From a virus (Duplodnaviria; Caudoviricetes): a stretch of 64,000 nucleotides of DNA. The notes below the pieces were generated by a model. It saw nothing but the letters and a program-made list of their open reading frames with translations, was not told the origin of the DNA and did no database searches. Below, piece by piece: positions 40,925-59,256 of the stretch (position 1 is its first letter; every line of letters starts with the position of its first letter). Location: the IMG/VR virus record IMGVR_UViG_3300022594_000001; one strand, 5' to 3'. Both the position numbers and the translations under genes were made by a program.

Positions 40925-42115
40925 ATGAAGACTGCTGACAAACTACTTAACGTTTTAGTAAAAAATCATAGCGAGAATCTCAACAATTCTTTGCCGTATA
41001 AGGATGCACGAATTTTACATAGCTTGTGTAAGAGCATTAACGGTGATACTTTTATTACTGAAAATCAAGCAAAGCTGTTAATTAAAATTTTTAAAGAAAA
41101 TCAAAAGGTATTAAAAGTGCTTGACGATGAATTTGCAGATATAGTTGCTGATCCTACGTGGTCTCAACCATTTCGTCCTCAGGACACAACTAAAAAAGTA
41201 TACATTGGAAAAATCAATGATGATGCTGAAGCCATTGTCATCGAATTTGCATATTCTTCCTCTATTCGCAAAAAAGTGCAGTCACTAACAAAGACTGTTT
41301 CCGGAATGGCCCAGGTACAAAGTGGCAAAATGTTTTATGCCGACTTCACTGAAAAGAACATTGTTACTATTGTTGACGAGCTTAAAGAATTTAATTTTGT
41401 TATCGAAGAAAGAGTGAAAAATTTCTACGATACCATCAAATCTTGGGACAAAAATGTGGTAAGGGATCAGTTCCTATTAACGAACATTGTACACGATACC
41501 TTCCAAAAACAAATTACTGCAGACCTCGGTATTGACACTGCGATTGATCAAACCATCATTTCTGACCGTAGTAACCGGTATCAATATTTTACCGAAAAAA
41601 CCGAAAAAAATCCGGAAAATTTGACTGAAAAAATTGCCTTACGAAATTCATCTAAAATTTGGATTGACAAGAATGCCACACCACTTGAAGAAATTTTTGA
41701 AAGTTTAACTGAACTAAAAAGATTACCAGCACTTATTGTCTTTGACTCATTCGACTCAAAAGCATGTTCAAAAGAAATGGTAAAAATCAGTGAAATTTTG
41801 GAAAAAAATGGAATTTTTGACGACGTTGGAATTTACTTCAGATTGAACAACGATGAGAGTGGAAAAGTTTTTAATGACCTTATTAAAGATAAAAAGTATA
41901 ATTGTAAGTTAACATCTACTACAAAAATTGTAGGTGTGCAAAGCGGAAAAATTCCTAAATTTTTGTTAAAAACTGACTGGAAACCAATGAGTGTAATTTC
42001 AATTGGTACAGTACTAAGGCATAGCAAAACGGCAGTGTACGCCAACTGTTGTGATTTAATTATATCGTACACAGACAAGGAACCGATAATCGAGCCAAAA
42101 ATGATATGGGAATAA
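40925..42115 (+). CDS. hypothetical protein
   Basis: 396-aa ORF after a strong promoter, coupled to uvsW. Confidence 0.7.
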   Translation: MKTADKLLNVLVKNHSENLNNSLPYKDARILHSLCKSINGDTFITENQAKLLIKIFKENQKVLKVLDDEFADIVADPTWSQPFRPQDTTKKVYIGKINDDAEAIVIEFAYSSSIRKKVQSLTKTVSGMAQVQSGKMFYADFTEKNIVTIVDELKEFNFVIEERVKNFYDTIKSWDKNVVRDQFLLTNIVHDTFQKQITADLGIDTAIDQTIISDRSNRYQYFTEKTEKNPENLTEKIALRNSSKIWIDKNATPLEEIFESLTELKRLPALIVFDSFDSKACSKEMVKISEILEKNGIFDDVGIYFRLNNDESGKVFNDLIKDKKYNCKLTSTTKIVGVQSGKIPKFLLKTDWKPMSVISIGTVLRHSKTAVYANCCDLIISYTDKEPIIEPKMIWE

Positions 42116-43580: not shown

Positions 43581-44087
43581 ATGCAGATACTAACATTAGA
43601 TAACAAGACATTCGATTTAAACAATTTACCAGACGAAGTAGATGACAATACTAGGTTTGCCGTACTAGATAACAGTACACCTAGTGAACCAGATTTTTTC
43701 TTTCAACCACTGATATTTTTAGAGTCATTTAACGCACCGGCAATGGTATTAAGAATCGGTGATGACGAAGTTACAATGCCCATTGATTGGAGCATTGCTG
43801 TAGGGGATAGTACTGCTGCTAGCGATATTGAAATTTTACCGTTAACTAGTTTAAACGACAGGGGATTTGAAGCATTAGTTTTTAACCCACTAAGTTCATT
43901 TAGAGTTGAATTTAAAAAGATTCAAATTGTAAATTTTTACAATGACGTTAAATGGTATTTTCCTAAAATGAAAAACGGGCATTTATTATCAGTCCCGACC
44001 CGCATGGGGGATAAACCACCATGCGCATACTTTGTTAAAGAAATTAGTAGACAAAGCGAAATTATTCAATTAGATAAGTTATTATGA
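43581..44087 (+). CDS. hypothetical beta-rich protein
   Basis: SD AAGGA; coupled ORF. Confidence 0.65.
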   Translation: MQILTLDNKTFDLNNLPDEVDDNTRFAVLDNSTPSEPDFFFQPLIFLESFNAPAMVLRIGDDEVTMPIDWSIAVGDSTAASDIEILPLTSLNDRGFEALVFNPLSSFRVEFKKIQIVNFYNDVKWYFPKMKNGHLLSVPTRMGDKPPCAYFVKEISRQSEIIQLDKLL

Positions 44088-44662
44088 TTGCTAATGTTTT
44101 ATATGCTGTTCCAATTTGGGATATAACGTATCCTGATTTTGCGTTTGAGAAAGATTCTCTTATTAGAGACTTTAAAGATTATTTAAAAGATAATCCTACG
44201 GAAATTCGATCAAATGTTAACGGACAGCATAGTAAAACATTACTCCACGAAGACTTTAGATTTAAAAAGTTGTTTGATTACATTACATTCGTATGTAATG
44301 AAGCTGCGGATTCTATCGGATTAGACAAGAATCTGCGTGTTATGGAATCATGGGTTAATATTAATAATACACCCGGTGCGTTCAATCTCCAACATATACA
44401 CGGAGGAGTAGTATCTGGAATTTTCTATGTACAAGTTCCTAAAGGCAGTGGAAATTTATATCTGTCTAATCCGGCTCCTATAAACTTATGGGAGGGATTA
44501 AATAATGCCTATGAACGCAATGAGTATTCTGGGGAGACAAGGGAAGTGCATCCTATAGAAGGTACAATCCTTATGTTTCCAAGTTACTTGCCACATAGTG
44601 TTGGCCCTAACACATCAGAAGTTGAACGCATATCAGTGGCATTTAATACTACAAGGAAATAA
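44084..44662 (+). CDS. 2OG-Fe(II) oxygenase-like protein
   Basis: SWVNIN, HIH..SGIFYV, FPSYLPHSV, RISVAFN. Confidence 0.8.
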   Translation: MIANVLYAVPIWDITYPDFAFEKDSLIRDFKDYLKDNPTEIRSNVNGQHSKTLLHEDFRFKKLFDYITFVCNEAADSIGLDKNLRVMESWVNINNTPGAFNLQHIHGGVVSGIFYVQVPKGSGNLYLSNPAPINLWEGLNNAYERNEYSGETREVHPIEGTILMFPSYLPHSVGPNTSEVERISVAFNTTRK

Positions 44663-44663
44663 T

Positions 44664-44945
44664 ATGGGGAGTCTTAAACCGGGTGCTAAACTCGTATACG
44701 AACGTGCAGACAATGTAGTTTATTCTAGAGAATTTGGGTCAGACCCTAGCTCACGACAAGTTGTAGGTTGGGACTACGATCCTGAAAATCCACTATTTGA
44801 TCCAAAGGCTGAAGGTAAAAAAGAACTAGACGAACATAACGAATGGATAAGAATTCGACTAGAAGCAAAAACCAATCCTGCTTTACAAAAGGCAGTGGAT
44901 CGTGTTATAATGATATACAAATTAAGTAAGGACAAATTACCATGA
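44664..44945 (+). CDS. hypothetical protein
   Basis: True start MGSLKPG at 44664 after AAGGA. Confidence 0.65.
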   Translation: MGSLKPGAKLVYERADNVVYSREFGSDPSSRQVVGWDYDPENPLFDPKAEGKKELDEHNEWIRIRLEAKTNPALQKAVDRVIMIYKLSKDKLP

Positions 44946-45595
44946 CATTGAAAGTTGCATACTTTCAGCCAACTATAATGGCTATTGATCAAATTCCCCC
45001 GATCGAATTTAGCAAAATATACACGCTGGCAAATGAGATACATCAGCATTCAGAATTACATGATGCAGCAAATCCTTTTCTAAATATTAGAGGAGGACAG
45101 CAAATTCAAGTGTATCCTAATAAAATAAATCTTGATGTTAACTGGCTAGTAAGTTACTTAGAAACATTGTGTCAAGGTTATATGGAACTTGTAACTGCGC
45201 AAAGCGGTGCTGAAGATTTAAAACTTTGCAAACCACAAGTTATTAGTATATGGTCCATTAGACAAAAACAAGGTGACTATCAAGAAATGCACAGTCATCC
45301 AGCTGGACATATAAGTGGCAACATGTATGTTACAGTTCCTGAATATGAAGACGGTAGTAATCCGACAGATGGACAAATTGCATTTAAAATGCCCTTTACT
45401 AAAGATGTTAGTAAATTTATTTTAAATGATACATGGAAGAATCAACCCCAAGCAGGCAGTATAATGGTTTTTCCAAGTCATATTCCACATACAGTTTATC
45501 CGTGGAAAGGCAACGGATACAGAACTGTGCTTTCCTTTGATGCTATACTAAGACCAAAGGATGATTTGCTACCACCGGAGTTTAGAAATGGGTAA
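44942..45595 (+). CDS. 2OG-Fe(II) oxygenase-like protein
   Basis: HSHP...SG.MY, FPSHIPHTVYP, R.VLSFD. Confidence 0.78.
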   Translation: MTLKVAYFQPTIMAIDQIPPIEFSKIYTLANEIHQHSELHDAANPFLNIRGGQQIQVYPNKINLDVNWLVSYLETLCQGYMELVTAQSGAEDLKLCKPQVISIWSIRQKQGDYQEMHSHPAGHISGNMYVTVPEYEDGSNPTDGQIAFKMPFTKDVSKFILNDTWKNQPQAGSIMVFPSHIPHTVYPWKGNGYRTVLSFDAILRPKDDLLPPEFRNG

Positions 45596-46073
45596 GAATA
45601 AGCACGTTGATTTATTTAACGATATGATACCCGCAGTTGATATGAATGTCAAAGAACTGTGGGATGCCGTTACGGACGAAGGACGTAAAGAAATTAAAGG
45701 TGACTTGTGGAATCTTACCAGGTATATCAGTAACGTAGACTCAACAAATGTGGAAGTACAGCAGCATTATGTGTTAACAGTAAACGAATACTATAATAAG
45801 CATTGGAACTTGCTACAAAAGAATCATCCAAAGTTATTGTGGTTGTTATTGTGTATGTGTAATTATGACGGTAAGACTAAATTTTTTCATAAATGGCTTC
45901 CTTTGTCAAAAACTCCAGTAGACAAGAAAACAAGATTCTTAATGGAGATATACCCAGATATGAAAGCAGACGAAATAGAATTGCTTGCTAAAATTAACAC
46001 AGATAAAGAAATCAAAGAACTTGCTCGACAGCACGGTATGGATGACGCTACTATTGCAAAGAAATTTAAATGA
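45588..46073 (+). CDS. hypothetical protein, possibly clamp-loader small subunit (gp62)-like
   Basis: Helical, FHKW motif, replication context; similarity is weak and from memory. Confidence 0.35.
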   Translation: MGKNKHVDLFNDMIPAVDMNVKELWDAVTDEGRKEIKGDLWNLTRYISNVDSTNVEVQQHYVLTVNEYYNKHWNLLQKNHPKLLWLLLCMCNYDGKTKFFHKWLPLSKTPVDKKTRFLMEIYPDMKADEIELLAKINTDKEIKELARQHGMDDATIAKKFK

Positions 46074-46765
46074 TGAATTTAACTGGAACTACATCTTTTA
46101 CTTGTCAGTATTGTAATCACAAATTTACTAAAGAAAAAACTTTAGCAGTGCATGTTTGTGAGCAAAAACGAAGAGCACTTGCACGTACAGAAAGGCATGT
46201 AGTACTAGGATATGACACCTATAATAAATTTTATAAACTCACTCAAAACTCCAAAGGTGACAAAAGTTATGACGATTTTGCTCGAAGTCCTTACTATAAT
46301 GCTTTTGTTAAGTTTGGTAGCTTTGTTAGCAATGTCAATCCCTTATATCCAGATAGATTCATTCACTATGTTATTACTTCTGGGGTCAAGTTAGATCATT
46401 GGTGTCGAGACGAATTGTACGACAAGTATGTTGTAGATTTAGTTAAAACTGAAACAGTAGAAACTGCTCTCGAACGCAGTATTAAACATATGATGGATTG
46501 GGGAGAAGCAAACAATGCTCCGTGGAACCATTATTTCTTATATGTTAGTTTAAGTCGAGCAACGTATGATATTAAAGATGGCAAGATTAGTCCTTGGTTT
46601 TTATTAAACTCTAGTAACGGAAAATCACTACTGAAGAAATTGAACGATGAACAACTCAGTGCAATAAACAGCATTATGGATGTACCATTCTGGTTTAACA
46701 AATTTAAAAAACTTCCAGCTGATGTTGAACTTGTTAAACAAGTTGTCAAGGAGAGTAATATATAA
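46070..46765 (+). CDS. protein with N-terminal C2H2-like zinc finger
   Basis: FTCQYCNHKFTKEKTLAVHVC. Confidence 0.6.
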   Translation: MMNLTGTTSFTCQYCNHKFTKEKTLAVHVCEQKRRALARTERHVVLGYDTYNKFYKLTQNSKGDKSYDDFARSPYYNAFVKFGSFVSNVNPLYPDRFIHYVITSGVKLDHWCRDELYDKYVVDLVKTETVETALERSIKHMMDWGEANNAPWNHYFLYVSLSRATYDIKDGKISPWFLLNSSNGKSLLKKLNDEQLSAINSIMDVPFWFNKFKKLPADVELVKQVVKESNI

Positions 46766-47331
46766 TGCCAGATATCGATATAGACTTTGCAAATAGAAAA
46801 AAAGCACTTGAAAAGTTCAAGCACGTTGCTGCTTCCATTGAAGAAAATGGTAATTTTAAAAAGCACAATACTGGCGTGTATTGTACTTCTATCCCGTACA
46901 ACCCAATTACTGGTTCAAGTACTATTGATTATAAATTGGCAGAAAAAAGGGGATATTTTAAACTCGATTTCCTCAACGTAAGTGTGTACGAAGGCGTTAT
47001 AAGTAAACAGCATCTAAATTCTTTGATGCAAATGGAGCCTTTATGGGACTTACTGGAACAGGACGAATTCACAGATATGCTATTTCATGTGAATGGGCAC
47101 GGGGACATTTTGAGAAAAATGAAACCAAGATCGATCGAGCAATTGGCTGCGGTATTGGCGATGATTCGCCCTGCAAAACGCCACTTGATAGGGAAAGATT
47201 GGAACGACGTGAACAGCGAAGTTTGGCTGAAACCAGAAGGCGATGAATATTATTTTAAAAAGGCACATGCAATTGCGTATGCGCATGTGGTAGTTGTACA
47301 AATGAATTTAATCTGTGAAGGATTAAATTAA
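46765..47331 (+). CDS. miniature DNA polymerase III alpha (DnaE)-like protein
   Basis: PDIDID, KHNTGV, GYFKLDFL, KP.SIE.LAAVLAMIRP, YFKKAHAIAYA in DnaE order. Confidence 0.8.
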   Translation: MPDIDIDFANRKKALEKFKHVAASIEENGNFKKHNTGVYCTSIPYNPITGSSTIDYKLAEKRGYFKLDFLNVSVYEGVISKQHLNSLMQMEPLWDLLEQDEFTDMLFHVNGHGDILRKMKPRSIEQLAAVLAMIRPAKRHLIGKDWNDVNSEVWLKPEGDEYYFKKAHAIAYAHVVVVQMNLICEGLN

Positions 47332-47702
47332 CGTCCTTTTCTAACTAGCTGTACAGACTTACGTTTTACACGTTTAAGCGTTAAATTCATTAGGTTAACT
47401 ACTGGCCCTAACACAATGCGAACATCCTTGCTGTTGAACGTTTTAACAGCATACGCAAATGGTGTTACTTGGTCTCTACAAAAAATATTGATAGGAAATT
47501 GACGATTACTTTCCCACCACCAAGTTTCTCCTACCTCTAAAAATGCCGTTTTTTCCTCGGGAGTACGTATGGCATTTAAATCATAGAAGCTGGTTACAAA
47601 TTGGTCTTGGTTAATAATAATGCCTATATATTCTTCGCCGCCGTAGTTAATTACGCTTATAAACGGTAAATTTTGTTCTATGTTGTCTCTTAGTTTTGCC
47701 AT
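47328..47702 (-). CDS. hypothetical protein
   Basis: True start MAKLRDN at 47702; TATAAATA on minus strand 47747-47754. Confidence 0.6.
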   Translation of the reverse strand: MAKLRDNIEQNLPFISVINYGGEEYIGIIINQDQFVTSFYDLNAIRTPEEKTAFLEVGETWWWESNRQFPINIFCRDQVTPFAYAVKTFNSKDVRIVLGPVVNLMNLTLKRVKRKSVQLVRKGR

Positions 47703-47728
47703 AAATACATTAATAAAGGTTTGCCAGA

Positions 47729-48820
47729 ATGCAAAAAATCTCAACATATTTATATCCAAACAGGATACAACTATTAGCCGATTTGGCGGGCTTCAATGTG
47801 GAGTATACAAACGTGTATCAAAGAACAGTAAAGATTTATCAGGGCGTTGATAATGTTCTAGAATTTGACATCAAGAACGCAGACGAGAAGCGAATAGAAT
47901 TAGTTACGAGCCCAGTAATTACAGATATTGCATTAAACGTTATGGATGCAAGCGGTAATGCCCTACCAACTAGTCCATATACTGTAACACCTAGCACAAC
48001 AATCACAGGCATTGCAACTGTCACAATTCCTAGCGCAGATTTAGAAGGGTTAACCTCTCAATTTTTAACGTATAGTGTAACTGCTACAAAAGATACAGCT
48101 ACTATTCCTTTATACGGAGATAGTAGATTTGGATTAAATGGAACAATTGAGTTAATCACCGATGCTATGCCAAAAGCTCGTCCTTCGAGAGTTATAAAAG
48201 ACTTTGCAGCAGAAATCGATTTGCAAGGACGCCCAATTTATCATAGCAGTAGCATTCCTGCAAAATTCTATGAAGCAGTAAAAACTGAAACTTTGTCATT
48301 TGATATTCACGTAACTGGATTTGTAGGTTCAATTTGGATTGACGCAGCAACCAGTGATACAATTAGTGTTGAATCATGGAGGGCTGCTGGACGCCCATTC
48401 GGAACTTGGATTTGGAGTGGAGACTTGTTTACTGGTACTATACCATTTGCAACAACAGTTCCAGTAGGCGACTACGCTTATTTTAGAGTATCATATCAAA
48501 CACCTACCTTTAACGGAATGGGTGCTATTTTTGATGTTACACGCACTGGTGGTAATTACAATGTTACTATTAGTAAAGGTGGAACAGGTTACGGCGCTGG
48601 CGCAATTATTCGAGTTCCGGGAAGTTTATTAGGCGGCGTTGATGTTACAAACGACTTGTTCATAAACGTTACTGGATTAGAAGGTGGCGGCAATTCTAGC
48701 TATGTTGTAAGCTCAATTACAACTATAACCCATACAGGAACAGCCGCAGCCGGTACTGGAACTTATACAGTTTCGGGTACTAATTATGCCGGAATAGTTG
48801 ACTCTGTAACAGTGAGTTAG
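47729..48820 (+). CDS. late virion-type protein with beta-repeat module
   Basis: TAAATA 47702-47707; carries the GAIFDVTR.GG.Y...GG.GY...LLGG...NDL module found in 11923..19563. Confidence 0.55.
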   Translation: MQKISTYLYPNRIQLLADLAGFNVEYTNVYQRTVKIYQGVDNVLEFDIKNADEKRIELVTSPVITDIALNVMDASGNALPTSPYTVTPSTTITGIATVTIPSADLEGLTSQFLTYSVTATKDTATIPLYGDSRFGLNGTIELITDAMPKARPSRVIKDFAAEIDLQGRPIYHSSSIPAKFYEAVKTETLSFDIHVTGFVGSIWIDAATSDTISVESWRAAGRPFGTWIWSGDLFTGTIPFATTVPVGDYAYFRVSYQTPTFNGMGAIFDVTRTGGNYNVTISKGGTGYGAGAIIRVPGSLLGGVDVTNDLFINVTGLEGGGNSSYVVSSITTITHTGTAAAGTGTYTVSGTNYAGIVDSVTVS

Positions 48821-49845: not shown

Positions 49846-49942
49846 TTTTATTTTAACACCTTGGCACAAGTGGCAAGAGCATCGAGCTTATAAAAAGCGT
49901 ATTGCAGAATTGCGTAAACGTGATCCATTTATCTACAAATGA
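49829..49942 (+). CDS. 37-aa basic peptide (MKKLIDFILTPWHKWQEHRAYKKRIAELRKRDPFIYK)
   Basis: Not in the ORF track; AAGGA SD; ATGA overlap with next gene; the RKRDPFIYK ending is recalled from aquatic T4-like phages. Confidence 0.65.
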   Translation: MKKLIDFILTPWHKWQEHRAYKKRIAELRKRDPFIYK

Positions 49943-50895
49943 TTAGTTGGGGTATAAACGCTTTAAATCACGGCAGTAGCCTTGCTGTGTTTAAGAATGG
50001 CGAATACATAGACGGCTTTGTATCTCCTAATGATAATTTAGATCCTAATCAATTTAAATTAAATTTAGAATATCAAGGACCTCCGGATCGTATTTTCTGG
50101 TATGAACGTCCGTGGTTAAAGAAAGCTCGCCAACTGTATGCAGGGCAATACCGAACTGCATTTAGTTTAGACAATTTGCCTAGTACAAATTTAAAAAAGT
50201 GGGGCCTAGGATATGCACCTGTTACTTATACTTCTCATCATGGCAGTCATGCTGCCGCGGGATATTACACTAGCCCGTTTAACCATTGCGCAGTTGTTGT
50301 GCTTGATGCTATTGGTGAGTTCGAGTGTGCAACTATATGGAATTGCGTACACGGTGAAATGAAGAAGGTGTGGAGTAGAAGTTATCCACATAGCCTTGGA
50401 TTATTTTACAGTGCATTTGCACAATTTGTTGGATTAACTCCTATTAGAGACGAATATCTATTAGAACAGATGGCTGCTCGAGGTAATCCAAGCGAGTTCC
50501 TACGTTATGTTAAAAGCTATTTTGAATTTGGAGATACACTAAATTGCAATACAAACTTCCATCGCGGAGTTTTGCATTGGGACTTAAATGAACTAACTAC
50601 ATTGCAAGAACAGTGTGATTTAGCAGCAGCAGTACAGTGGGTCTTTGAAGATCAAGTGTATGCAGTAATGAAAAAAGCAAAAGAACTAACAGGAGCAGAC
50701 TGTTTAGTTTATATGGGTGGCTGCGCTATGAACGGTACTGCTAATAAAAAATGTGTCGAACCAATGTTTAAATATCGGTGGAGTTTACCAAACCCGGGAG
50801 ACCCGAGTAGTGCAATGGGCGCGGTATTGTACCATACTAAAACACGAGTATGGAAGGACTGGGATACCGTCAAACACCTTGAGATTAAAGTTTAA
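49939..50895 (+). CDS. carbamoyltransferase, N-terminal (Kae1-like) domain only
   Basis: NHGSSLAV, HHGSHAAAGYYTSPF, VLDAIGE, SLGLFYSA, GGCAMN, PGDPSSAMGA; no C-terminal domain. Confidence 0.8.
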   Translation: MISWGINALNHGSSLAVFKNGEYIDGFVSPNDNLDPNQFKLNLEYQGPPDRIFWYERPWLKKARQLYAGQYRTAFSLDNLPSTNLKKWGLGYAPVTYTSHHGSHAAAGYYTSPFNHCAVVVLDAIGEFECATIWNCVHGEMKKVWSRSYPHSLGLFYSAFAQFVGLTPIRDEYLLEQMAARGNPSEFLRYVKSYFEFGDTLNCNTNFHRGVLHWDLNELTTLQEQCDLAAAVQWVFEDQVYAVMKKAKELTGADCLVYMGGCAMNGTANKKCVEPMFKYRWSLPNPGDPSSAMGAVLYHTKTRVWKDWDTVKHLEIKV

Positions 50896-52412: not shown

Positions 52413-52856
52413 ATGGAACTGCACCACATCAAAGACATCAACGATCCTCTAGCACAGGTAATCAAAGATGATCCTGTGCGTCCACATATTCCTCTAGAAC
52501 AGCGTGTAAACAATCTTGCTGAAATTTTATTATTGAAAGCAGGAGAGGAAATCTTAGCAGCCACTTGTATGCAATTTACTAAAGACATCCCAGAAGATGA
52601 GCAGGATCTTATTGATCTTGCTGAATCAAATGATATTGCAGTATTTTATACTATTTGGAGTTATAAGCCAGGCGCTGGACAGCAACTAATTAAGCAAGCA
52701 GCAGAATGGTTGTTGAGAGACTATAAGGACATTAAGTCAATAGTTACACTAAGTCCCCAGACAGAAATGGCTAAACGTTTCCATACTAAAAATGGAGCAA
52801 AAACACTTAGACAAAACGAAACAAGTGTAAACTATCAATACTACAGCAAAGAATAA
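52413..52856 (+). CDS. GNAT-like hypothetical protein
   Basis: YTIWSY.PGAG..LI, A.RFH.KNGA; late promoter 52381-52386. Confidence 0.45.
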   Translation: MELHHIKDINDPLAQVIKDDPVRPHIPLEQRVNNLAEILLLKAGEEILAATCMQFTKDIPEDEQDLIDLAESNDIAVFYTIWSYKPGAGQQLIKQAAEWLLRDYKDIKSIVTLSPQTEMAKRFHTKNGAKTLRQNETSVNYQYYSKE

Positions 52857-55906: not shown

Positions 55907-56482
55907 TTAATCAATTTCCGCATTGAACTGCCCGCGTACAAACACGTTCCACGCTAGGCTAATACGTGGTTTAGACCCTGTATTCTTTTCAACCCAATGA
56001 TCCGTTTCGCTAGGAAACATAAAACAATCACCTGTTTCTGGCTTTTCTAGCCACTGGTTTGCGTTCCATAGAGTTGTTTCTTTACGGTCTAAATTAACAC
56101 GGGGTTTCTTATCGTTTAACCATACAATCTCACCACCTGAATCTGGATCAGCATCTAAGTAAATAACCCCTGATGCTAGGTTGTTTGGATGCCAATGTCT
56201 ATGGTGACTTTGCCCTGGATTATTCCTGTTGAGCCACGAACTAGTCATCATTATTTCGTACTCTTCCGTTACTGCCAACACGCCATAAACATAGTTGCAA
56301 GTAACTTCGAAACAAATCTTGTTTATTTCTGCAAACTCGGGCTTACGTAGTATCCACTGATCCTTGGATATTTCATTCTTTTGATTGTTAGTCCACTCAA
56401 TGTTTGATAAGTCCGGCATTACAATGTTGTAATGATCCTTTAAAACTGGCGTACTGAACAGCGGTAGTATAGTTGAATTCAT
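55907..56482 (-). CDS. 2OG-Fe(II) oxygenase-like protein
   Basis: SWLN.N.PG, HWHPN...SGVIY, FPSETDHWV, RISLAWN. Confidence 0.8.
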   Translation of the reverse strand: MNSTILPLFSTPVLKDHYNIVMPDLSNIEWTNNQKNEISKDQWILRKPEFAEINKICFEVTCNYVYGVLAVTEEYEIMMTSSWLNRNNPGQSHHRHWHPNNLASGVIYLDADPDSGGEIVWLNDKKPRVNLDRKETTLWNANQWLEKPETGDCFMFPSETDHWVEKNTGSKPRISLAWNVFVRGQFNAEID

Positions 56483-57807: not shown

Positions 57808-58536
57808 ATGGATCGCAAAACAATACCTTTTCAAAATGTAGGCTATGCTCTGCACCGATTTAGTGATGAAGAATTACAGCCTATCTGGAATGAAATTAAT
57901 GAAATCATTAATGACGATACTGGCATACACAAAATGAATGACGAGCTTGTAGGTAACCTATTGTACGAATACGAGCTAACAAAAACCTACGATCATATTC
58001 AGAATTTAATTACCCCTTGCATTTGGGAATACAACAATATCTTTAACTATCCTAACAACCTAGAAGTATTAAAAGAAGCTAAGATGTTAAAGCTAGATCG
58101 CCCATGGGTTAACATTATGCAGAAGCATGAGTACAATCCTATACATAATCATTCAGGTGTAATGAGTTTTGTTATCTGGATGAAAGTCCCGTATACAATG
58201 GAAGAAGAAAAAGCAGCTAAACCCTACGTGCCTAAACACAGTAACATTGCTGGACACTTTGCCCTTCACTATGTAGATACGCTAGGATACATTAAAACAG
58301 AAACTATCCCGGTTGACAGTAGCTATAATGGGGTTATGTGTTTGTTTCCTGCAAGTATGCATCACTCAGTGTTTCCATACTACAGTTCCGATGATTATCG
58401 AGTCACTGTAGCTGGAAATTTTATATTTGATCTAAGTACAGAGGATCAAGAAACACTAGGTAAGTATGATACTGCTGCTGCTTGGACTAACCCAAAATCA
58501 CTTACTGATGTTGAGCCAGTTAAACGGGCACTTTGA
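57808..58536 (+). CDS. 2OG-Fe(II) oxygenase-like protein (tandem paralog)
   Basis: WVN.M.KHEYNPIHNHSGVMSFVIW, FPASMHHSVFP, RVTVAGN. Confidence 0.8.
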   Translation: MDRKTIPFQNVGYALHRFSDEELQPIWNEINEIINDDTGIHKMNDELVGNLLYEYELTKTYDHIQNLITPCIWEYNNIFNYPNNLEVLKEAKMLKLDRPWVNIMQKHEYNPIHNHSGVMSFVIWMKVPYTMEEEKAAKPYVPKHSNIAGHFALHYVDTLGYIKTETIPVDSSYNGVMCLFPASMHHSVFPYYSSDDYRVTVAGNFIFDLSTEDQETLGKYDTAAAWTNPKSLTDVEPVKRAL

Positions 58537-59256
58537 TTCTGAGTCTTCTTGAGCACGGCGCACTCGACGTATGCTCTTGTACTTGTTCATAAAGGTAATA
58601 GGGCGTGTTTTGTTGCAGAGTAAATCAAACTCACGCTCAGTTAACATTTCATTTTTAATCACTAGTTCACGCTCACTTAGCGGAACAATATGACACAGGG
58701 GCTGTCCATGTTTAATCATGCTGCTGCCTTTGCTAGTATCGATTAACATGTTTACATTGGTGCTGTAGTTGTAGTGGAAATCAATAGTGCCAAGCATGAC
58801 TTCCCAACTTTGTTCTTCTAGTTGATCCCAGTAGACAGGCATCATAGTCCAGTAAACGTCCTTCTCACTGACAAAGCGCCAAGGGCTAGCAATCTTCATA
58901 TTAATCTTATTAGGTTTAAATCCACAGCGCAGCTCAACTTCTTGATAGTCGTTAGTAGTGATTAAATCGCTAAACTGATTAGCAATGCCACCTTGTCCAT
59001 TAGTACTGATAGCTAAATCAGTCCACATGGGAATAATCAAACCTTGCCCATAATGATCCTGTATGCCTACACAGTTTTTAATAGTCTGTGACAAATGGGT
59101 TGATTCCCAATTAACACTACTTTTAGCAGCAGCTTTCCACCATTCAGGAAAGAACTTGTTAGCCTTTTGGATTGGTGCATATTCGTAAACATGCGAAAAT
59201 TTTTCACTGACATAGCAGTGTACGGTTAGTTTAGGTTTGCGGAAAAAGAATATCAT
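58498..59256 (-). CDS. hypothetical protein of a type common in aquatic T4-like phages
   Basis: PI.KA.KF.PEWWK...TIK.C.G...G.IIP.W.D; TAAGTA 4 nt upstream of ATG. Confidence 0.55.
   Translation of the reverse strand: MIFFFRKPKLTVHCYVSEKFSHVYEYAPIQKANKFFPEWWKAAAKSSVNWESTHLSQTIKNCVGIQDHYGQGLIIPMWTDLAISTNGQGGIANQFSDLITTNDYQEVELRCGFKPNKINMKIASPWRFVSEKDVYWTMMPVYWDQLEEQSWEVMLGTIDFHYNYSTNVNMLIDTSKGSSMIKHGQPLCHIVPLSERELVIKNEMLTEREFDLLCNKTRPITFMNKYKSIRRVRRAQEDSESKCPFNWLNISK

Follow-up and report, generated by a model that had tools for sequence, protein, structure and literature searches.

How can a polymerase of the DnaE type, a protein of 1160 amino acids (aa) in Escherichia coli, be represented in a phage genome by an open reading frame (ORF) of 188 aa? 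The question is raised by positions 46765..47331 (+ strand, ATG start) of the virus record IMGVR_UViG_3300022594_000001 (IMG/VR; Caudoviricetes), of which a stretch of 64,000 nucleotides, hereafter the window, was analyzed. A preliminary description, made from the sequence, had presented the product as a stand-alone miniature DnaE that keeps all catalytic motifs of the C-family polymerases. We find that the ORF is a true, intact, and selected homolog of the palm and fingers of DnaE and that it is very probably the C-terminal unit (C unit), comprising the metal-binding palm strands and the middle finger, of a two-subunit minimal Pol III alpha of the group 2.2 (T4-related) jumbo phages. The locus is thus a further example of a published feature rather than a discovery, and nothing about it is new in kind.

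All six motifs named in the preliminary description are found in the ORF and follow the order of their counterparts in DnaE of E. coli K-12, the positions of which were taken from its genome record: PDIDID at residue 2 (PDFDVD, 400), KHNTGV at 33 (HAGG, 511), GYFKLDFL at 63 (KFDFL, 553), LFH at 106 (VFQ, 608), KPRSIEQLAAVLAMIRP at 120 (ALVALFRPG, 633), and YFKKAHAIAYA at 163 (FNKSHSAAYA, 756). The protein opens with M1-P-D-I-D-I-D, M1 corresponding to M399 of E. coli DnaE. The D3-I-D5-I-D7 strand (46771..46785, +), which matches the motif of solved DnaE chains, supplies the equivalents of two catalytic aspartates, D401 and D403, and K66-L-D68 (46960..46968, +) aligns, in a comparison based on a hidden Markov model (HMM), with K553 and the third catalytic aspartate, D555. 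The finger helix motif R135-P136 (47167..47172, +) is placed by conservation and alignment on FRPG 638-641, with the RP at residue 135 compared to 639 in E. coli, and H168 of the YFKKAHAIAYA helix (47251..47283, +) is equivalent to H760, which we take to be the steric-gate histidine. The three aspartates and the lysine of the C-family site are kept. The claim that all catalytic motifs are present does not hold, however, because the GRGS nucleotide-binding motif of the palm (E. coli 361-364) is missing from the 188-aa ORF. The ORF coordinates bear out the described gene boundaries: at TAATG the gene starts within the stop of its upstream neighbor, and at its 3' end it overlaps with a convergent gene (47328..47759, −).

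The resemblance to DnaE is far beyond chance. A PHROGs search matched the full length of the ORF to phrog_11778, annotated 'DNA polymerase' (E 2.7e-68), Pfam gave a sub-threshold match to DNA_pol3_finger alone (E 0.01), and phmmer against the PDB sequences returned weak, collinear matches to the DnaE proteins of Mycobacterium tuberculosis and E. coli. The family HMM aligned residues 53-138 with 539-641, and residues 151-177 with 741-768, of E. coli DnaE. The AlphaFold2 model of the protein, for which an alignment of 87 diverse family members served as input, has a mean predicted local distance difference test score (pLDDT) of 97 and a predicted template modeling score (pTM) of 0.89. In a Foldseek search of the PDB with this model, the top 18 rows are all C-family polymerases and there is no other significant match. 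VIA-align superimposed it on the Taq Pol III alpha ternary complex (3e0d_A, chain 461-837) with Z 9.9 over 187 residues at a root-mean-square deviation (rmsd) of 3.7 Å, followed by M. tuberculosis DnaE1 (Z 9.6), PolC (3f2b, Z 9.5), and E. coli DnaE (2hnh, chain 400-780, Z 9.2), compared with Z 3.0 for the first unrelated chain. Across the C-family chains, 184-187 of the 188 residues are superimposed at an rmsd of 3.5-3.8 Å. The structural comparison that the preliminary description had proposed thus points to C-family polymerases and to nothing else.

The superposition also locates what has been lost. The 188 residues cover a span that takes up 381 residues (400-780) in E. coli DnaE, and two deletions account for the spacing of the motifs. 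The thumb is deleted, the distance from the DxD motif to KH being 30 residues as against 109 in E. coli; according to this spacing and the secondary structure of the model, a short helix and a beta-hairpin (residues 8-32; 46786..46860, +) stand in place of the ~80 residues of the DnaE thumb. The index finger is deleted as well, with 29 residues between RP and FKK as against 117. Past E. coli residue 780, the region of the clamp-binding and OB segments, there is no alignment.

The protein belongs to a large family that evolves under purifying selection. Across 87 full-length members, with identities as low as 32%, D3, D5, K66, D68, and P136 never vary, and D7, H34, G37, R135, K138, K165, H168, and A173 are conserved in at least 90% of them; among the first 80 full-length representatives listed, 78 carry DxDxD within ~20 residues of the start. 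The median ratio of nonsynonymous to synonymous substitution rates (dN/dS; Nei-Gojobori) is 0.13 (range 0.04-0.25) over 338 pairs with unsaturated dS, that is, not near 1. A word-index search yielded at least 7997 homologs of near-identical length, mostly 192 aa, many of which carry the Joint Genome Institute label 'DNA polymerase III alpha subunit', and an exhaustive search of 1.84 billion representatives yielded 426 C-unit clusters at 50% identity (E <= 0.001). The expectations of the preliminary description that the ORF is not a frameshifted remnant, that length and aspartates would be conserved among homologs, and that such short ORFs might already be labeled as Pol III alpha all held. Metagenomes from ponds, viral fractions, and freshwater contain the identical gene, and contigs of up to 345 kb encode the identical protein.

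As a side observation on the locus as a whole, the stretch 45588-48820 was found identical in pond, viral-fraction, and freshwater metagenomes of several studies from 2019-2025, and the runs listed as carrying the stretch whole or in part number 20, from 11 studies. One metatranscriptome run yielded short, low-depth contigs at 46676-46826 and 47027-47189, with the rest uncovered; DNA carry-over is possible, and we did not count these contigs as expression.

The absence of GRGS bears directly on whether the protein can act alone. In the Pol-beta-type nucleotidyltransferase fold, a helix and the triphosphate-binding glycine-serine loop come before the DxD strand. Because the chain starts at the DxD strand and the GRGS half is missing, the 188-aa protein is not a complete enzyme, and the stand-alone polymerase of the preliminary description gives way to a split one. 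In relatives (Atu_ph07, Phosso, PA5oct, CBB, and four IMG/VR contigs), the missing half of the palm is a separate gene of about 170 aa located far from the C unit. The complete genomes of Atu_ph07 and Phosso each contain one further small ORF, of 177 aa, which was detected with Pfam PF07733, ends in ...GVGRGS...EFL(E/N)-stop, and lies about 180-225 kb from the C-unit gene. Five large, incomplete IMG/VR contigs encode C units 70-77% identical to that of the window; four of these contigs also encode such an N-terminal unit (N unit), of 166-170 aa, ending in ...GVGRGSSVASY...EFLR and positioned 158-185 kb from the C unit. In the Rak2-like phages and PA5oct, the distance is 34-44 kb. The N-unit profile aligns to E. 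coli 323-392, so that the break in the chain falls in the six-residue loop before M399, and G-V-G-R-G-S-S is invariant in the N units. At least 8000 matches to the N unit were obtained in the word-index search. Among GenBank phages grouped by host, the numbers of N-unit and C-unit matches, respectively, are 34 and 34 for Escherichia, 11 and 11 for Pseudomonas, 10 and 11 for Klebsiella, 8 and 8 for Salmonella, 8 and 8 for Erwinia, and 4 and 4 for Xanthomonas phages, so that the groups coincide and the numbers nearly so. The N-unit query also matched full-length DnaE of unrelated phages.

The two units occur joined in nature once. In a protein of 375 aa (P0318), the N unit runs directly into the C unit within one ORF, and a PF07733 match spans the junction (residues 97-207). 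It is the sole fused protein among the 1.84 billion representatives and is encoded by a single metagenomic contig of 2.4 kb with a GC content of 25% (L097:1066-2193); the word-index search for longer, fused forms returned one unrelated PHP/exonuclease protein alone. A homolog of the convergent small gene lies just downstream, which places the fusion at the C-unit locus in a relative of low GC content. As a 'Rosetta stone' for the pairing of N and C units this protein is useful, if thin, coming from a single contig, and it could represent either the unsplit ancestral form or a secondary fusion.

The pairing is further suggested by structure prediction. A complex of the N unit of a relative (G002) with the C unit of the window scored 0.90, compared to 0.01 for the best of three controls. 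Among solved complexes, 58 of 80 reach this mark, and among mismatched pairs 2 of 110; because our own alignments were used, these counts apply only approximately. Three runs share at least 98% of their contacts, and the pLDDT of the partner is at least 90. In the predicted complex, residues 128-141 of the N unit (a strand and the GRGS loop) touch residues 2-9 of the C unit, that is, the DIDID strand, and the first 75 residues of the N unit wrap around the hairpin region of the C unit, at about residues 40-48. This score may, however, reflect likeness to solved structures of whole DnaE rather than provide independent evidence, because whole DnaE has been solved and the two units are halves of one fold.

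What is split here is probably a minimal enzyme rather than a conventional one, because PHP and HhH are not encoded in the relatives: PF02811 (PHP) and PF14579 (HhH) matched nothing in Atu_ph07 and Phosso, both searched as complete genomes, or in three large relatives, a search in which control genomes were positive and the OB family was not included, and the sole DNA_pol3_finger signal in these five is the C unit itself. The possibility, raised in the preliminary description, that the missing DnaE domains are encoded elsewhere thus applies to the palm half and, in these relatives, not to PHP and HhH.

The C unit shares with bacterial DnaE (2HNH, 3E0D, 5LEW) and PolC (3F2B) the Pol-beta-type palm strands, the three aspartates and the lysine, and the middle-finger helices. 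A conventional DnaE or PolC is a single chain of ~1000-1450 aa with PHP, a complete palm, thumb, fingers, and beta-binding/HhH regions; the ORF has 188 aa (~355 with its partner), its chain breaks off between the equivalents of E. coli residues 392 and 399, it has neither thumb nor index finger, PHP and HhH were not found in relatives, and in its phage group the replicase is a family B polymerase, beside which the protein occurs. Split C-family polymerases are known from cyanobacteria, in which DnaE is encoded as DnaE-n and DnaE-c and rejoined by a split intein. The enzyme of this phage group resembles the cyanobacterial one in being a C-family polymerase derived from two distant genes and differs from it in that there are no intein halves at the break, the break lies inside the palm signature, the protein is miniaturized, and assembly would be non-covalent.

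The closest known system is the split minimal Pol III alpha of group 2.2 jumbo phages, which was described from sequence with the very arrangement seen here (Iyer, Anantharaman, Krishnan, Burroughs, Aravind 2021, Viruses 13:63, PMC7824862). These phages also have a family B polymerase, and the authors suggest for the split enzyme a role in the synthesis of one strand or in repair. Examples from this group are the Atu_ph07 'DNA polymerase' gene at 58304-58798, PA5oct gp264, and CBB gp287; for CBB and Atu_ph07, a 'truncated' Pol III alpha had been noted in earlier genome papers, and the PA5oct preprint does not mention the gene. Over the full length, the C unit of the window is 53-54% identical to those of Atu_ph07 and Phosso, 47.5% to that of PA5oct, and ~41% to those of Rak2-like phages, and it shares with the group 2.2 C units the length, the start at the DxD strand, the gene order, and, in its relatives, a distant N unit. 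It differs from the cultured examples in coming from an uncultured pond or freshwater phage, and its clade differs from the Rak2-like phages and PA5oct in the greater separation of the two halves, neither of which is a difference in kind. The preliminary description knew of no functional study, and indeed we found no paper reporting activity; the sequence description, in contrast, is already published (PMC7824862).

In the mechanism that we propose, the C unit would contribute two palm beta-strands with the metal-binding residues D3, D5, and D68 and with K66, together with a helical middle-finger module in which the RP and KxH motifs would line the site of the incoming nucleotide and the template. 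Alone it would be inactive, because the chain is cut inside the Pol-beta-type signature, between the glycine-serine-loop helix and the DxD strand. The distant N unit (~165-177 aa, ...GVGRGSS...EFLR) would dock without a covalent bond, through pairing of its last strand with the DIDID strand, and would thereby rebuild one active site of ~355 residues, in a core devoid of PHP, thumb, index finger, and HhH and of the DnaE clamp-binding and OB segments that lie beyond the aligned span. This reading is backed by the observed homology, fold, conservation, and purifying selection, by the existence of a partner gene in relatives, and by a single natural fusion; we infer with high confidence that the two units assemble in this manner into one Pol-beta-type active site. 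The invariant residues suggest nucleotidyl transfer dependent on the aspartates and Mg. On balance, the product probably catalyzes template-directed DNA synthesis, a claim for which our confidence is only somewhat better than even. With moderate confidence, the most likely role would be short, distributive synthesis that complements the family B replicase, for instance in extending primers, filling gaps, or repair; we propose it because the gene keeps a constant position, with primase and helicase encoded three genes downstream.

Several observations weigh against this reading. The N unit was not found in the 64-kb window (tblastn with two N units, best E 1.8), and its presence in the genome of this phage may be assumed by analogy with the relatives; likewise, the complex was modeled with the N unit of a relative instead of the phage's own. 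Phrase searches of the literature for a functional study gave only intein papers and the article by Iyer et al., and no report of biochemical activity was found among them. A family B polymerase ORF of ~890 aa was identified in three of the five large related contigs, all five being incomplete, and none was found in the window; the check for such an enzyme proposed in the preliminary description therefore came out positive for relatives and negative for the window itself. Finally, all the modules with which DnaE grips DNA are missing from the core, so that templated polymerization is not assured.

The last of these points carries the strongest alternative, namely that the N + C heterodimer is catalytic yet is no template-directed DNA polymerase and uses its site for another nucleotidyl transfer, such as untemplated tailing of DNA ends, the synthesis of short oligonucleotides or of a nucleotide signal, or the extension of RNA primers and nothing more. 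In Pol III alpha structures, the thumb, index finger, HhH, clamp-binding, and OB modules hold the primer-template duplex; thumb, index finger, and HhH are gone from the phage core, as are the segments beyond the aligned span. The Pol-beta superfamily is, moreover, known to include many nucleotidyltransferases that are not polymerases, and the phage group already possesses a full family B replicase (PMC7824862), seen here in three of the five related contigs. This alternative is a real possibility, albeit clearly the less probable one, given that RP and the KxH motif with the H760 equivalent, which face the deoxynucleoside triphosphate (dNTP) and the template in DnaE, are nearly invariant here, and that throughout the phage group the gene holds its place in the replication module, beside the genes for primase and helicase.

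A more elaborate form of the split-enzyme reading, which we consider rather unlikely, would make the N + C heterodimer the initiator of a T4-type primosome that extends the RNA primers of the primase before hand-off to the family B polymerase, with the zinc-finger protein encoded just upstream as a DNA-binding or recruiting third subunit replacing the lost thumb and fingers, and with the fused form as near-ancestral and unsplit. Comparable hand-offs by a primer-extending polymerase are those of Pol alpha in eukaryotes and DnaE in Bacillus.

The zinc-finger protein and the gene before it also figured in the preliminary description, according to which a minimal polymerase encoded by the ORF would be completed in trans by these two neighbors. 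The first, of 231 aa (46070..46765, +; phrog_11058), lies directly upstream and is translationally coupled to the C unit; it combines a C2HC zinc finger, with invariant C12, C15, H28, and C30 (C-x2-C-x12-H-x-C), with an all-helical body (pLDDT 91), and it is a conserved neighbor, not shown to be part of the enzyme. The second, of 161 aa (45588-46073, +; phrog_11758), has no Pfam match. Its language-model features lie near clusters in which 13% of the members are Phage_clamp_A (T4 gp62), so that the label 'gp62-like' is a fair lead, which, however, points to a clamp loader rather than to a polymerase; the ORFs scanned include no recognized gp44-type ATPase gene beside it. Completion by these proteins could be argued from synteny, since both accompany the C unit in 75-81 of the 82 related loci, those of Atu_ph07 and Phosso among them, from the TAATG overlap, which suggests coupled translation, and from the zinc-finger protein itself, which has no recognized fold and could serve as a DNA-binding accessory. 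A gene of equal size is located just upstream in PA5oct and CBB as well, likened to the zinc-finger gene by size and place alone. Such completion is nevertheless very improbable. Neither neighbor carries GRGS or any similarity to Pol III, and relatives (Atu_ph07, Phosso, and four of the five large contigs) devote a gene of its own to the palm half, which one lineage has joined to the C unit. The zinc-finger gene is parted from the C unit by one to three small genes in Atu_ph07 and Phosso, and synteny is weak evidence where all these genes form a collinear core replication module.

The N + C enzyme of group 2.2 phages has also to be weighed against a catalytically dead DnaE remnant with a structural or regulatory role in the replisome, an explanation with which the extreme truncation and the lack of an activity report in the literature would agree. 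Dead enzymes normally lose their catalytic residues. Here, the three aspartates and K66 are invariant down to 32% identity, GRGS is invariant in the N unit, and dN/dS is ~0.13, and we regard this explanation, too, as highly unlikely. Least plausible of all is that the ORF is a piece of a conventional full-size DnaE whose parts are either encoded by several genes or reunited through a split intein, with cyanobacterial DnaE as the precedent: we rejected it on the missing PF02811 and PF14579 matches in the relatives, where the C unit gives the only finger-domain signal, and on the lack of space for intein halves, the C unit beginning with MPDIDID and the N units of relatives ending in ...EFLR without extension.

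If the C unit of the window does form the enzyme proposed above, its interest would lie in its size and distribution. The N + C pair is the smallest known version of the core of the bacterial replicative polymerase, an enzyme cut through its own active-site signature, and it is widespread and strongly selected in environmental giant phages that already have a complete family B replicase. Activity of the pair, once demonstrated, would inform the minimum of a C-family polymerase and its form before accessory domains were acquired, a state on which, as Iyer et al. argue, the minimal form bears (PMC7824862).

The genomic setting is that of a T4-type replisome, as the preliminary description had recognized. 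The window encodes a gp32-like single-stranded DNA-binding protein, UvsX, a UvsW-like helicase, a DnaG-type primase, and a DnaB-type helicase, in addition to a tail sheath protein and terminase. The order of the 161-aa gene, the zinc-finger gene, the C unit, the convergent small gene, a structural gene, primase, and helicase is kept in 72-81 of the 82 related loci, with the zinc-finger gene upstream of the C unit in 81, and the annotated order in PA5oct and CBB looks alike. The convergent gene (47328..47759, −; phrog_11637, E 1.9e-31) shares a 4-nt overlap with the C-unit stop, is present in 79 of the 82 loci as well as beside the fused form, and measures 124 aa according to gene callers, its longest ORF being 143 aa.

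For the zinc-finger protein, a recruiting or DNA-binding role is conceivable. Foldseek found no PDB match to its fold at E <= 0.001, and the best VIA Z, 4.7, is to AAA+ lid-type helices, too weak to name a fold. We also considered the T4 helicase loader gp59; similarity to 1c1k (Z 3.6 over 95 residues) and to BFVD entries named 'helicase loader' (E 0.4-1.2) is too weak to support this assignment.

Additional genes were noted in and around the replication module. Three paralogous genes for 2-oxoglutarate (2OG)-Fe(II) oxygenases (PF13759) are located in or beside it, at 44084-44662, 44942-45595, and 55907-56482, and a fourth 2OG-Fe(II) oxygenase is annotated just after 57172 on related contigs. 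An ORF of 318 aa (49939-50895, +) that matches the N-terminal domain of carbamoyltransferases alone (PF02543, E 3e-26) separates the primase gene from the helicase gene; in PA5oct and CBB, these two genes lie side by side. The helicase gene is immediately followed by an ORF of 147 aa (52413-52856, +) in which the malonyl-CoA decarboxylase C-terminal domain (PF05292) is matched with an E of 8e-6, marginally above the cut-off. The gene immediately upstream of that for the UvsW-like helicase, a 396-aa ORF (40925-42115, +), has no Pfam or PHROG match; at the equivalent position, CBB encodes a DnaQ-like exonuclease.

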